The position numbers and the translations under genes were made by a program. The notes under the pieces are model-generated. The model saw only the letters and a program-made list of their open reading frames with translations, made no database searches and was not told where the DNA came from. Source: Candidatus Omnitrophota bacterium (GTDB lineage: Bacteria > Omnitrophota > Omnitrophia > Omnitrophales > Aquincolibacteriaceae). Taken from it: a stretch of DNA of 64,000 bases. Below, one piece after another: positions 42,624 through 51,600 of the stretch. The first letter of the stretch is position 1, and the number at the start of each line of letters is the position of its first letter. The DNA is taken from contig JAKLFP010000006.1 of the NCBI GenBank assembly GCA_022711115.1, forward strand, positions 19,699 through 83,698. Direction: 5' to 3'.

Positions 42624-45600
42624 TTATGCGGCTTGTTCGATGACTTTTCGAGTTTCAGCGGCAATGCTGATATTTTCAATGAATGCGAGAATGCCACTCA
42701 CAGGCTGGATGCCTTGCGGTATTTGTTTTCTTTCAAGGATCGTGTTTAGGGCACCAAGCAAGGCAAAGGCTTTTTGTCTTTCATCAACATCGTGATAAAC
42801 CAAAAGAGTACGGTCGGCATGTCCGGATTTAGAAACAACCGGTGCAAGACTCTCCAGATTGGCTGTCCCGCTTGAACTCATATCGTAAACAAGAGCGCGT
42901 TCTGTTGTTTTCTGAATAAATCCCGCGATCTCTGTTTTCTCAGATATGACGACAAGGTTCACCCCCCGACCCATCACCCCTTTTGCGTCACGCATTTTCA
43001 TGATCTTTTTGATCAATGCCTGTTGAAATCTCGTCAGCTCTGTTTGCGCGGCATGGGGCACCACGATCTGCACCGGTGCGAATTTATTCCTGGTCATGAA
43101 CTGCATCAACACCTGCAGTGACGGATCCTCAAGAGACGGAATATTCTTAAAAATGACCGCGATCCTGTCCGCACCGGTTTCCGCTTTTGCTTTATTGGAA
43201 AGCAACGCAAGATAATTCCGTTGCCGAGTCAAATGAGGGATCGCATAAGCGTTGGGTATCAGTTCAGCCAAAACCCTATTCAAGATCTCTTGCCCCATCG
43301 CCAACGCCGAACTCGTCCGAAAGACACCTTCTGCCGCTTTTGTTGCTACTTGTTTTTCAGATTCAGAAACCTGTGTAACGAGCGGCGCGGATACGGCGGC
43401 AGAAGTTTGAGGCTTCTGCACGCCGCTCCGCAACTGCGCTTCGTCGAGAATTTTGTGTGTTGTTCGTATTTCAGAACGTTGCGAGGGAGCGGTAGTGGAA
43501 GCATCTTGCTTCATACCACCAACTCCCTGCGCTTCGTCGAGAATTTGAAAATCCGATCTCTTTCCTATTTTTTTCCGGCCATTGAGCAGATCATGGAGAA
43601 AATGTTTTTCAAGGTTTGCAAGAAAAGCCGCGTGTTTGTCCTGAGAATGCTGCAAATCTTTGAATTTTTGTTCTGCTTCCTGATTTAAAACTTCGAGACG
43701 TTCTTGGGTCCATTCATTTTTGACTGAACCATCAGGATTTAGATAGGGTTTCAGAAATTCTTTTCTATAATCCGGAATGGAGATACCGTAACTCACATCA
43801 AAAACAACGCCGTTTTCTTCCAGGACATTTTGATCCGAAATAAAAAGGATATTCTTATCGCCATCGAGCACCACAGCGTCGCCTTCCTTTAATCGCTGCC
43901 CATTCTTGAAAATGATTCCTTGGTCTTTGCCTGTCAGGTCCCACCGAGAGACTTCGAGATTGATAAGTGATGGAATTCCAGAGAGGCGGGTCAAAACAGC
44001 CTCATGGGAAGAGCTATTTCCATAGCTGGTAATCAATCCTGAATCCGGATAATTGAAAAGAAGCGTCAGCGCTTGTTCCTGATTGCCCGGATGAGAAACA
44101 AAAACAACGGGTTTTTTCTGGGCTATAAGCTGTTCCATTCGATCCCGATTCCATGCGAGTTGCCCCTGCAAAGCGCCAGGGGTCGATGCCAAACCACGCG
44201 TCAGGGGTGTTGCGATAATAGGGTCTTTGACTTTATAAAGTTTTCTCGATCTTAACCGTTCTTGAACTTTTTCGATGCGCGGGATGGCGAGGCGCTCTGA
44301 AATTTTTCCTTTCGTTAATTGCTCACGAAGAAAAGCGATTTCTGCCTGGGGAGAGAAATTCATTTTGCGTGTTTGTGTAAAATACAATTTTCCGCCGCTC
44401 ACGACAAATTCGAATTCCTGAGGGCCGACTGCTTCCTCCAGTTTTTTCCTGGCCTCTAAAAGCTGCTGGAAAATGGCCGGGGCTTCCTGCTCAAGCTCCT
44501 TGATATCACGACCCGCTTCACCACCTGTCATCAACTCATCGCCGGCAGCATTTTCAAGATAACGTCCGAAAAGAATGTCCTGATTGGTATTCGGATCTCT
44601 TGTTGAAATAACGCCTGAAAAATAAAGAAGGAGCTTCCTCTCGTTGCGACGCGGCGAGTTGGGATCACGATGAGGATCTTGCCCACTGACCCACCGCTGA
44701 ATAATCAAAGGTAAATCAAATTTGTCCGGGATCCTTTCCCTCGCTCTGAATTTTTTAGCGGCTTCTGATTCCCATGCCTGGGCTGTTTCCTGGAGTGTCC
44801 CCTTAAAATCATAGCGGACGCGACGGCTGCTTAAGATGCCCGGCATCGACTGCTTGGGATTGCTTCGGATAATCAATGCCTCTTCGCGGGGATAGGACTC
44901 CCACCATTCGGGAAAATGAACCCGGATACCCGCGTGACGCAATTGCTGATCGATAAAAGGAAAATATTTTTTTGCTTCCTCGTTCGGAAGCCCGACCAGT
45001 CGGGCAACAAGATCTTCTGAAAGCACAATGCCCGGAGGATAAGGAAGCCCCAGTTTTTCAAAAACCAAAAAACCTGCTTCTTTGTTGCCCATACCAGGCT
45101 GATAGGGCCCTTTCCCCAGTTGCCTTGTCCCTGCTTTGACTCTTGCTTCGATATCGGAAAATTCGTTTAGGAGGATCCTTCGCATGAGAAGATCCCCTGC
45201 GCGGCAATAAAGCGACATGAGATCGCCGAATTCTTTAGGAACAACCCAATAATCTCTCGCGACTCCGTTCATGTAATGCCGGGTCGGTTCCCAGTTTTCA
45301 ATGCCTCGGTAATACAAGAAGTAAGCATTGGGAATGCCTAATTTTTCTTTAAAAAAGACAAGTCGAGAATCTTCTGTGATCTTCGTCGTTCCTTGTTGAA
45401 GAGTTCCCAGGAATCGCCTGTCATCTTCTAAATCATCCAACCGGGCATCCCATTCAGCAGTTAAAATTTTTACCATCGAGGGCTCTTCGGCTTGCGCCGG
45501 TCGAGGCAGATCCTGCTTTACATTTTGATACACTTCAGCCAGCAATTTTAGATCCAAATCCGGATTAATCTTGATGGCGGCCTGATAAACAGCACGGAAC

Positions 45601-48600
45601 TTTTCATCCGGAACTTCCAGGATGCCAAGAGCTTTTATTTGCTGTTCCAAAGTACCCTTGCGCTTTTCAACCTCTGAACGCATTTCGGATCTTTGTTGAG
45701 GCATTTCGATGCGGAGATCTCGAATTTTACGAAATAACGGCCCATATACAATTTTTTGTGCCACAAAAGCCAAAAACGCCAGCGCTATGCTTCCCTTAAG
45801 GGCAAAGATCCAAGGGTGATTGTCATTAAATAGAATTTTTGAAGCCAAAACAACGGCCAGTCCGGCCCATCCCCCGGCCCAACCGGCTCTTTTTAATATG
45901 TGACGTTTAAGCAATCCCAAAATTTCGTATCGAGCATCATTCAGATTGTCCAGATCCGGCTGAATCAAATCAGCGAAAACCCCTTGTCTTTCCGAGGATA
46001 ACTTGGCTAAGTAGATTTGAATTTGTTCCCAAGAAGTGACGGCTTCTTGAAATTGATCTATGATGGCGGAAAGGCTTGTGTCCTCATCTTCGAAAAAAAC
46101 AGAATCTCTGCCGTCGATTTTGGTTTTTAACGTTCGGACCATCGTTTGAAATTTTTGAAGTTCCCAACGGATTTCACCTTCAGGCATGTCTTCTTCGTCT
46201 AAGTGCCGACGATTCGGGCTTTTCGTCCGCATTTCCGAACGAGGCATAAAATTTATTTTAAATCCGTATGCATTCAAGCGCTCAATGATATTATCTTTCC
46301 CTTTCGCGCCTATGTCATAAAGGTGATTTACCTGTTCCTTGGATAATGCCCGGAGCTCACCGATGGTTCTAATACCATTCCGATGAAGAGCATTGGCATT
46401 GCGCACATCCAATCCGAGAAGCTCAATCTTGTCATTATCGGTCAGATGCTTTTCTCGTTCGCTAAGCCCAGGCAATCCATTGACCGCCAAACGGTTACGA
46501 ATATGCCGCAATGTTTTTGGCGCCGCTTTTCCTAAACGCGAAAGTTTGTCTATGGAAACCGCCAGCAACTCGCTGATCGGCGACATACTGCTTATTCCAA
46601 GCCGAAATAAAACTTTCATGGCCTTAGGATTTAACCGCAAATACCGGACCGGATGTTCCGGTGCGAGGGGCCTTCCGGCTTTATAGATCTCGTAATAGCG
46701 TTCCATTTTCCACAAAGCGTTTCGAAACCGGAACCAAGCGGTTTTTGCCCCGCTGATTCCTTCTTCGCGGGCAAATTGCGCAATGGATAAGGGCGTTTCA
46801 GCCAAAAAGAGCCTCCAGATCATATGTTTTTGCCTATCCGTTAAAATCTCCTGGGATCGCACGGCAAAATTTAAATAATCCAAGCTTCTCAAAAAAGGAT
46901 ATTCTTCTTGAAGGCGAGCTATAAAATTCGTTTCGCGATTTGACGACGATCCCGACCGCATCTCGGCACGGTTTTGTGGAATCTCCGAACCTCTTTGAAG
47001 GGATGAGGCAGAACGGGCTGGAGATGGAATACTTCTATTACCAATGCGCTGATCGCCTTGGTAATAAACCAATGTTTCGCCGGCAATCACCGCAGAAATC
47101 GGGCGGGGCGTGCCCCGGACGGTTGCGCCAACTTGACGTTTTAGCAATTCGTTGGCAGAAACAGAGGTCACAGGCTGCCAATCCCCCGCCTTAAAAATCC
47201 TTTGTTTTTGATTTCTTACTTTATCTTCAACAAAAACTTCCGAGGCAAAAAACTGCTGACAGAGATTCATCACCTCAGGTTCCAGAATGCCCCAAACCAC
47301 CATTGAAAACCGCTGCTCTGCAGCGCGCCGGCTAAGGGCATTCAAAATAGTTTTGGCAATCCCGCGACCGTAATATTGCTTGTAGGAATGATCCTCCTTA
47401 CTGCCTATGGGGTAAAAATTAATAACGGTCAGTCGCCTAAAAAAAGGAAGTGTCATTTCCTTAAAGGTGACTTTTCTTTCGGTGTGAGTCTGGCCTTCAA
47501 TAAAGACTTCCACCTCATAGTATTTTTCAAAAAAATCCACATTCTCTTTTCGCAAAACCAATGTCACATCTTCATGGCCGTAAAGATTTTTCAGTTCAAT
47601 CCTTTCAAATTCTCCCCTCCCGTCCCTGCCGTAAGTATGTCTTTCCCACGTCACTTCAGGATTTTTTCCATCATGTACTTCAACCAACCTTCCGAGCCGG
47701 TCAAAAACATAAATATTTCCCGAGGCTGGATTAAACGGATCCTGGACCTGCCATTTATTACGAGCAAGGCCTGAAATCTTTTTTAAAAGTGTTAAAACAG
47801 AAAAATTACGCAGTTCTGAACGAGCCCGCGGTATTTCCTTCCCGGAAAGAAGAGAGCCAAGTCCCGCCGTATGAATCACTCGTTGCAATTGTCTCGCTCT
47901 TTCTTCAGTTTGATCGGGCAGCCATTCCGCAGCATAAAAAAAGTAAAGCGTACTGACAACAGCGATTATGCTGCTGATGATCGTTCCGAGCACAAACGGC
48001 AGTATTCCGGAAACAACGAAGAACCCGCTCGACACAAAAAGCGGGATAGCAACCGCCATGAGATTCCTCTTTATTTTCTTTTCTGTCTTGATGGAAAGGT
48101 CATTCAATATGCGAACATAACGCTTCGCTAATTCAATGAAACTCGGCGCCCCTTCTCTTGTGTTCGCCATTTGACCCCACGCGAAGAGACCCTCTCCCAA
48201 TTGTTTCCATTTCTCTTCATTGTAATAGTCCCTCGGAAGACGGCGATGTATGTCATTCGCTGTTAAATGCACTCCCCCGCGTTCCTCAACCATACTCAAG
48301 ATTTTATCAATCACGCCCAAGGAGAATATTTCGGTTTTTTTATTTTTAAGCAACCACTGAAGCGCTTCAATGCCCTCTTCTGCAATGATAGCTTGATCTT
48401 GTTTTTGAACGTTTCGCATCTCAGAACGGACTGGTTGAGAGCGTGGGACAAGTCTTAGCTTAGGCCTTTCTTGAAGCTGTTTGTTCCAATCGGAAAATAC
48501 TTCGAAAATTTTGGTTTGGGCTGCTCCATAAAGTTCGCGACGTGCTTTGTTATTTCCGTCCTGCATTGCGCTCATTTGTTCACGATCAAGCGCAAGATCG

Positions 48601-51600
48601 CTGATAACATCCCCCAAAACCTCGGGAGTAAAATCAGTCCCCAATGTCAGAACCGCTCCATGATCCGCATAAGCTTTTACCGCCATGGCGCTGTCGGTTT
48701 CTCGCTTCCCGGAAAGATCATTATTTGTGAAAGCACCGGTAATGACCGGCGCGTAAGATTCGGCGAGATTGTGAGCGGGATTGGTTCCGTTCTGAAGAAG
48801 TGTATTACCGTAGACCGCCAACCTTGCGGCTTTTAAAAGATTGGTCAGTTCCCCTGTCGAATTTAAAACAAGGATCCAGGCATTTTGATTCTTTTGGCTT
48901 GTGGTTTTACGAAGGCGATATGGAATTCCGGCATTTTGCCAGGTTTCTTCGAATTTTTTCTCGTTAAGCAAACTCGGAGCCACAACAATGGGATATTCTT
49001 CGAGATCCAAAAGTTTGTTCTGATAAATGTGTTTGAGAGTCGCCACCACAAAAGGAAGTTCGTCGGCATGGATATTCGCAAAGACAATGGGTGGATTTTT
49101 CAACCCGAATTCTTTAAGGACGGCTTGCGTATCAACCGTCAATATGGCTTCCAGATATTTGGCGGGTTGGTGGGTATGAAGCGTGATCTTTGCAGGAGGA
49201 CTTCGGGAACGAAGGCGAATCCAGGGATGATCCGGAAGAGTATTATCAGCAGTTAAGTAAAACGTGAACGAATTGAGCGGATCATTTTTCTCCTCATCTG
49301 CATTAAAAAACACCACACCTTCTTTATCCTGAAATGCTTTTTTAATAGAAGTTGCATTTTCGTTTCCATGGATGATCTTTATTAAAACGCCAGGCCAATG
49401 CTCGCGAATTATTTCGGTTAACATGCCGGCGGTATTTGAAAATTTTTCCGTGTTCTTCGAAACCCAAATCGACACAAAATCCGGCGTTTTTCCACGCAGC
49501 TCAGAGCGTTTTTGGTCACCCGGCGAAGTCGTAACACGAACCGGCATCCCAAGTTGATCGTGCTGGTAAACAATGAGCGTGACCTTGGCGCCCTGTGTTA
49601 TGGGGCTTGTACCTATCAATTCAAAACCGCCGAAGCCGTCTGACTTCCAAGCTTTCCCTTTGGATTCAATAAGGCCATCTTGAGCCTCGGTGCCGAATAT
49701 CCTGAATCCGTTTCCGTGAATACTGATAATTTCTTTTTTATGTTGAAGCAAAAAAGGAATATCGGAAATACCAGGCCCCGAATCCTTTCCGACCAGTTCA
49801 ATACCGGTTAACCCATCTGAGGTGTTGACCTGACTGATCTCAATCGAACCACCTTGCCCGTGTTTATGGATATTCAAAGCAAGCTCATGGACAAGATTGC
49901 CAAGTCTGTTCTGTTCTGCCATAAAATAATCCCGCTCAGCCGCAATATGCCGAACCTCGGTTTCTATATCCGGCACTTGCAACCGGTCAGGAATATTTTT
50001 ATCGATGATAAATGTCCGGATTTTCTCGCGGGAAACAATTCTAAAAATACCCGTTGGCGCCCGCATTTCGGAACGAATGGACGGCAAAGAATCTTGATCC
50101 CCTGAGAATGGCTCCTGAAAAACGCCCGAAAATGTAGAAAGCGTGATCATTGTTTTACCCTGTTCGCGAATAGAATCCATTTGAACATGGACCGGAAAGT
50201 CTATTTCATAAAACTCCGGCTGAAAACTATCAAAACCTAAATTTTTAAATTGTTTTTTGACTGTTCCGAGCAAAGAAGAGCTCCCGAGATTCAAAACCAC
50301 GATCATGACGTTGGAACTGCCGTTATTTCTGACGCTTGCCTTGAAAACAAGGGCAAAATCATTCCCCGCCTCCAGCAATAGGGCCTTGGTCATGTCGATA
50401 TCAATTTTAGTATCCGCGTTCAACCCATTCACAAACCGGTTCAACGCCATTCTGTCCGGCACATCCAACAGATAACCTTTGTGGATTCCCGCAATAAGCG
50501 GCATTGTCGCCTGATACTCCAAAGTTATAGAGGTGCGCAGTTCCGAGCGGGTTTGTTGCGATTTTTGTTGCCGGTAATAGGTCTTGATCAACACGCGGTA
50601 AAACTGGCGGAAGGCTTCCGCTGTATTCTTATCCTCCGCAGGTCTTAATTTCAGCGTCTCTCTGAAAATGTTTTCGGTCGCATCAAGAGCATCTAAATGT
50701 CTTAAAAAGGACTGTCCGACGTAAGCGATATGAATCACCGTGAATTTGTCACGTAATGAAAGATCCCGAAGAGGGTATCCAGCATCAGCAAATAAGGTCA
50801 GAATCTGCTCAAAAATACGAAGACCATCATCCCCTGCCGCAGCAACAGCTGCCGCCGCGTTAAGAATCCGAATTTTATCTTTAAACTGCATGCCGCTGAG
50901 ACTGTTTTTGCTGATGGCTAATTTTTCTTCTAGAAGCCCCAGTAAGGCTTGGAAAAGAAGGTACCCGGCCTGTCCGTTAATCACGGCTGGATAAACAGCT
51001 CTTAGCAAACGGTTTTTTTCTGTGTCCGTTTTCAAGTCAGGAAATCTTAGCCCGAAAGTAACCGCCAATTCTTCAAGAATTCTCCGAAAAACCTCCAGAT
51101 TTTTCCCTTGATTACCTGCTATGTGATAAGCAGCTCTCAAGAATTGAATGGCCTGTTCTGCATCCGCGACGGGCTTTTCTTTAGACGATAGTGTGAAAAC
51201 TTTATTAATCCATCGGAGGATAATCCTGAAGGCATCGAATCCCGCATCCCCCTCCGAAGCTACTTGACTAGCCGCGGTCGTCATCTGAATCATTTGCGAG
51301 GGAGGCAGATTATGTCTTTCTTCCGAACCAAGATGAAAGTAATCTCCAATAAAGCGAAGCGCCTTCGCGTAACGCTCATATTCTTCTTTGCCATGTTGCG
51401 AAAGACTATGGATCGCGCTAATAAGATCGATTTTTTGAAAAGTTTCGAGCTTTTCCGCAATCCCGTTACCACGTCCCCAATAGTGGACTGTGAATGCTAA
51501 TATGTCTCGAAAAACAGTGAAACCTTCTTCTCTGCCTTGGGTTACTACAGAAGCTGCTATAATCAGTTTCATTTTCTGTTTTACTTCCATGCGACGAACA

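Follow-up and report, generated by a model that had tools for sequence, protein, structure and literature searches.

Giant proteins of Omnitrophota are a current puzzle, and two reports describe the systems closest to the one considered here. West-Roberts et al. (10.1101/2023.11.21.568195) suspected that these giants are cleaved and stated that the cleavage points were unknown, which, according to the describing authors, blocked analysis. More recently, TM-only giants have been described as membrane-anchored cytoplasmic scaffolds (bioRxiv 10.64898/2026.06.07.730766). The giant analysed here belongs to the same phylum, its domain content agrees with the 'multi-enzyme, TM-only' class of that preprint, and the same TM-only, membrane-anchored, cytoplasmic topology is predicted for it; it differs in that its 7,976 aa fall short of the 10-kAA threshold set for the 2026 catalogue, and in that it carries an HTH/sigma/alpha-CTD module and a recurrent junction motif, neither of which is reported in either paper. 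The host protein is an Omnitrophota "multi-enzyme" giant, tiled according to Pfam with unrelated enzyme-type domains (methyltransferase-like, GNAT, HAD, P-loop kinase and PEP-utilising/PPDK-like).

Two further systems offer points of comparison. The canonical homes of sigma region 4 and of the alpha-CTD, the two domains that drew attention to this module, are separate RNA polymerase subunits. By analogy only, the giant also resembles viral polyproteins, in which protein-sized units are likewise split by a short conserved linker peptide, although searches of the giant found no protease domain and its host is cellular.

The giant ORF and its putative DNA-binding module

The window, meaning the whole 64,000-nucleotide stretch that was analysed, contains the features listed below. 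Amino acids are numbered from the ATG at 63836, and adding 906 gives the full-length numbering of the giant protein (P0001).

42624..64000, minus strand: giant ORF, running past the window end; supported by the identical ENA contig ERZ27257456 k141_672493
47928..48062, minus strand: membrane hairpin 1, two TM helices (aa 5259-5303, inside the module aa 5137-5338; hydropathy)
46971..47822, minus strand: neighbouring module between hairpin 1 and the DNA-binding module (aa 5339-5622; no Pfam or PDB match)
46956..46970, minus strand: RAEMR junction motif, N-terminal boundary of the module (aa 5623-5627; pLDDT <50)
46848..46955, minus strand: N-terminal helical lead, short helices preceding the HTH (aa 5628-5663; aligns with the N-terminus of P0124)
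46680..46847, minus strand: sigma-70 region-4-like three-helix HTH (aa 5664-5719)
46473..46652, minus strand: degenerate alpha-CTD-like (HhH)2 domain (aa 5729-5788; profile, library alignments, pLDDT)
46260..46448, minus strand: canonical alpha-CTD-like domain (aa 5797-5859)
46227..46241, minus strand: RSEMR junction motif, C-terminal boundary of the module (aa 5866-5870)
45741..45881, minus strand: membrane hairpin 2, two TM helices with an NDNHP loop (aa 5986-6032, inside the module aa 5866-6048; hydropathy)

A first-pass annotation had placed both RNA polymerase-type domains inside one giant ORF and bracketed them with RAEMR and RSEMR, and both statements were borne out: the minus-strand frame runs from 42624 to beyond 64000 with no upstream stop codon in the window, and the two motifs enclose one module of 243 aa (46227-46970, cassette aa 5623-5865). 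This module is in frame, and neither stops nor start signals occur at either end. The independent assembly of identical contigs makes an assembly chimera unlikely. Omnitrophota MAG genes are 70-77% identical to the YgiQ gene adjoining the giant ORF, and syntenic giants also occur in L005 and L006.

The cassette is not part of RNA polymerase. No match to RNA_pol_A_bac or RNA_pol_L was found anywhere in the giant, which therefore lacks an alpha N-terminal domain and is not RpoA, and since regions 2 and 3 (Sigma70_r2, Sigma70_r3) are likewise absent throughout the giant, the module is not a sigma factor. Two other candidate functions elsewhere in the protein were considered and set aside, namely a JAB-like HSHP...PS string at aa 2176-2531 as a protease, which lacks Pfam or PDB support, and a GHKL/anti-sigma kinase at aa 4588-4776, whose only match was TRAP1 at E 0.57.

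The alpha-CTD-like domains

The alpha-CTD identification is correct. The canonical domain matches Pfam RNA_pol_A_CTD (PF03118) at 48.5 bits against a gathering score of 23.8 (E 7.2e-13, module residues 175-233), RpoA CTDs dominate both the PDB sequence and the PDB fold searches made with the module, and the domain can be superposed on solved alpha-CTD structures, in keeping with the strong match first claimed; the core strings quoted in its support, VRNANALHRNGIRTIGEL and GAKGKDNIIERL, are both present in the translation. The module was modelled with AF2 from a 20-row alignment, the single-sequence run having given a pLDDT of 41.

In the E. coli alpha-CTD, the '265 determinant' for DNA binding consists of R265, N268, C269, G296, K298 and S299. 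In HMMER alignments, the canonical copy keeps the positions that match VRS.N and G.K: R5812, N5815, G5843 and K5845 correspond to E. coli R265, N268, G296 and K298, the residues with which the alpha-CTD contacts the minor groove (in full-length numbering, R5812, N5815 and K5845 are R6718, N6721 and K6751). The equivalents of C269 and S299 are A and G, respectively. The sigma-contacting E261 is not kept, with a G in its place (alignment by eye against the E. coli sequence).

The two domains were initially described as lying about 90 aa apart, but the 78-aa interval between them is itself a second, degenerate alpha-CTD-like domain, which scores 17.5 bits against an alpha-CTD-repeat HMM (a score reached by 0 of 2000 shuffles) and is modelled at pLDDT 84-92 (~90). 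Its R265-equivalent position is a K, and BLASTP between the two copies gave no match, their relationship being visible by profile only. Compared with the CTD of the RNA polymerase alpha subunit (PF03118; PDB 2MAX, 1Z3E_B, 3K4G), the module has the same (HhH)2 fold, matches the sequence profile and keeps the DNA-contact residues in its C-terminal copy, but it lacks the alpha N-terminal domain, has the CTD duplicated with one copy degenerate, and finds its closest sequence relatives among non-RpoA repeat proteins. For this last reason, and because the GC and GC3 of the module are typical of the giant ORF, an origin by recent duplication of the resident rpoA was rejected.

Free-standing relatives of the module

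In a protein library, 334 proteins match the module at E<=1e-3; matches at E 1e-17 to 1e-8 align over module residues 102-241 and span two domains, including the degenerate alpha-CTD. Architectures were examined in the best 149 of these 334 matches, where 89 combine sigma4 with tandem alpha-CTDs (among the counts, SAA in 12, SAAA in 18 and AAAS in 20), and 42 of the 149 repeat proteins match the degenerate region. Pfam Sigma70_r4 is passed by 7 of the 10 proteins checked. While the domains do have their canonical homes in separate polymerase subunits, as the first-pass annotation noted, their pairing is therefore not unusual, and sigma4 with tandem alpha-CTDs is a common architecture of proteins outside RNA polymerase.

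The module is collinear with free-standing S-A-A proteins 234-340 aa long, and the 236-aa P0124 aligns with its 243 aa end to end at ~30% identity. Such proteins (P0124, P0143, P0150, P0146, P0060, P0072) have the domain order HTH, alpha-CTD, alpha-CTD and a size similar to that of the module. They differ from it in being separate small genes rather than an in-frame segment of a 7,976-aa ORF; in addition, the HTH of the module is far more divergent (no Pfam match), its first alpha-CTD is degenerate, and the RSE.R motifs that bound it are carried by 0 of the 149 relatives. Word-indexed homologue searches with the module alone returned nothing, from a database that seemingly lacks the giant itself, and those with alignments including P0124 or S-A-A proteins returned almost only the input sequences. 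Scans of genome contigs and of two metagenome contig collections gave no relatives of the module or of modules 15-17, P0124 being the only relative across these scans and the word searches. Literature searches on a sigma4-(alpha-CTD)n family, or on sigma4/alpha-CTD fusion proteins, found none.

The reading that we favour, with a probability of roughly 0.6, is that this giant carries, as one protein-sized cassette, an in-frame copy of a small DNA-binding protein from a widespread family, and that the cassette acts near the membrane. The alignments place the HTH, the degenerate alpha-CTD and the canonical alpha-CTD in an order collinear with that of the free-standing homologues. In this mechanism, the C-terminal alpha-CTD would bind A/T-rich DNA via the minor groove. 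Instead of providing -35-type recognition, the HTH and the degenerate alpha-CTD would contribute affinity or contacts with proteins, and the cassette, either tethered or excised, would work in DNA binding or regulation on or close to the inner membrane. Counting against this reading are the failure of the HTH in Pfam and PDB sequence searches and its altered recognition helix, the equally good winged-HTH matches of a two-sequence profile, the lack of close relatives in the scans and word searches, the absence of the cassette from the final ~3,300 aa of two syntenic giants, and the lack of any protease domain match in the giant.

Junction motifs, membrane hairpins and the mode of action

The junction motif is more remarkable than the domain pairing. 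Strict R[SA]E[MILV]R occurs 19 times in the window, where 0.10 copies are expected, and 21 times in the full protein; it is 200-fold enriched, confined to module junctions, and marks every one of them. Two other Omnitrophota giants keep its position at their orthologous boundaries, and across the related giants the cassettes are shuffled with the motif and its offset retained. Because the fourth residue (M, I, V or L) could be encoded by ATG, ATT, GTG or TTG, RSEMR was considered as an in-frame Shine-Dalgarno sequence with a start codon, and this was rejected because the copies use different synonymous codons for Arg, Ser and Glu, there is no conserved purine-rich Shine-Dalgarno sequence, and the flanking sequences show no relationship. 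What is conserved in the motif is the peptide rather than the DNA, and a search of the literature for the motif strings found nothing relevant.

One possible, if tentative, explanation is that the protein forms a 'gene train' with cuts at each R[SA]E[MILV]R, and that the cassette, once freed, serves as a transcription factor in solution or as a nucleoid protein. The strict, enriched and junction-confined motif described above fits such processing, as do the low-pLDDT linker in which the motifs bounding the module lie, the small or polar residue (mostly A/T/G/S/N/E) that follows the second R, and the shuffling of cassettes with motif and offset kept. Cassettes also equal whole free-standing proteins in length, the module sharing its ends with P0124, and cleavage of Omnitrophota giants has been suspected (West-Roberts et al., 10.1101/2023.11.21.568195). 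On the other hand, Pfam and PDB sequence searches found no protease domain in the giant, and none was found in its downstream neighbours, and a motif conserved in linkers might just as well serve docking, modification or structure. For the mode of action of the cassette, we have a slight preference, still short of an even chance, for action after excision at the junction motifs over action while tethered. The fuller proposal, of a bacterial polyprotein in which the cassettes are former free-standing proteins, the pentapeptide is the processing site, and this cassette is released as a DNA-binding regulator, is rather unlikely; if true, it would bring a virus-like expression strategy to a cellular organism and supply the missing 'cleavage points' of Omnitrophota giants. 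A cassette matched end to end with a free protein, together with a recurrent pentapeptide, offers a concrete way to test processing, and the motif provides a rule for cutting giants into units for structure prediction.

Alternatively, the protein may stay uncleaved, with the cassette acting as a membrane-nucleoid anchor that keeps DNA, whether chromosomal or foreign, on the inner membrane beside the enzyme modules, a reading that we consider somewhat doubtful. By hydropathy, the 7,976 aa contain only two strong hydrophobic regions, both two-helix hairpins with basic flanks, and these enclose the DNA-binding module and one neighbouring module; the cassette, lying between these two hairpins, is predicted to be cytoplasmic, as is everything else outside the hairpins. 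The claim that TM helices flank the domains stands in so far as a hairpin is found on either side, but both belong to other modules, hairpin 1 ending 361 aa before the HTH and hairpin 2 starting 127 aa after the alpha-CTD. This arrangement puts the DNA-binding domains in a ~680-aa cytoplasmic loop pinned at both ends, which favours a permanent tether, as does the scaffold role described for TM-only giants (10.64898/2026.06.07.730766). A tether, however, leaves unexplained both the strict pentapeptide at every junction and the protein-equivalent nature of the cassettes, and in the two syntenic giants no such cassette is present over the final ~3,300 aa. Finding a predicted DNA-binding unit fixed between the sole membrane anchors suggests a link between giants and the nucleoid or gene regulation that has not been considered before.

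Identity of the HTH

In the module, the helices of the HTH occupy residues 45-56, 63-69 and 75-97, and its recognition helix, AKTAWFRFRNALWKMERYY, is divergent and aromatic-rich, without the conserved DNA-contact pattern of sigma4. This domain had been put forward as a sigma region 4 that recognises the -35 element. In favour of a sigma region 4, a custom sigma4 HMM scores the HTH at 7.9 bits, a score reached by 1 of 2000 shuffles; against it, neither Sigma70_r4 nor Sigma70_r4_2 (PF04545, PF08281) matches at E<=10, whether the whole module or its N-terminal 100 aa alone is searched, and the HTH has no PDB sequence match. With hhalign, comparison with 93 sigma4 domains taken from alpha-CTD-partner proteins gives 74.6% (E 2.7e-5) for the module alone and 95.2% (E 2.5e-8) for the module plus P0124, although in both cases only the first 37-41 columns align and the recognition helix lies outside them. 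The sigma4 identity of the HTH is, on these profiles, plausible but weak, and since the recognition helix lacks -35-contacting residues, '-35 recognition' is not to be assumed.

A generic, possibly winged, HTH with a superficial likeness to region 4 would make the module simply an HTH plus HhH DNA-binding protein, which seems unlikely. The absent Pfam Sigma70_r4 match is in line with this, and a two-sequence profile matches winged-HTH regulators (Lrs14, AdcR) as well as the sigma4-like UPF0122, its best PDB profile matches being Lrs14-like and AdcR/MarR (E 5e-4 to 7e-4). Against it stand the hhalign result, the P0124 region aligned to the HTH, which passes both Pfam sigma4 models, the S-A-A architecture common to proteins with a Pfam-verified sigma4, and the AF2 model, in which no beta-wing is predicted.

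The proposal that the domains mimic the RNA polymerase surface and bind polymerase-docking proteins (activators, anti-sigma or Spx-type factors) instead of DNA, which corresponds to the anti-sigma-like role suggested in the first-pass annotation, draws on the aromatic-rich recognition helix with its lost DNA-contact residues, the lost R265-equivalent of the middle alpha-CTD and the alpha-CTD-only free proteins that occur in phages, but it is improbable given the R/N/G/K residues kept in the canonical alpha-CTD, the loss of the E261-equivalent and the lack of an identifiable partner.

The sigma4 plus tandem alpha-CTD family comprises hundreds of 50%-identity clusters, to which the present module adds a member, and it merits a name and a test. 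Two genomic contexts were seen for this family, one upstream of ftsZ and the other beside an integrase.

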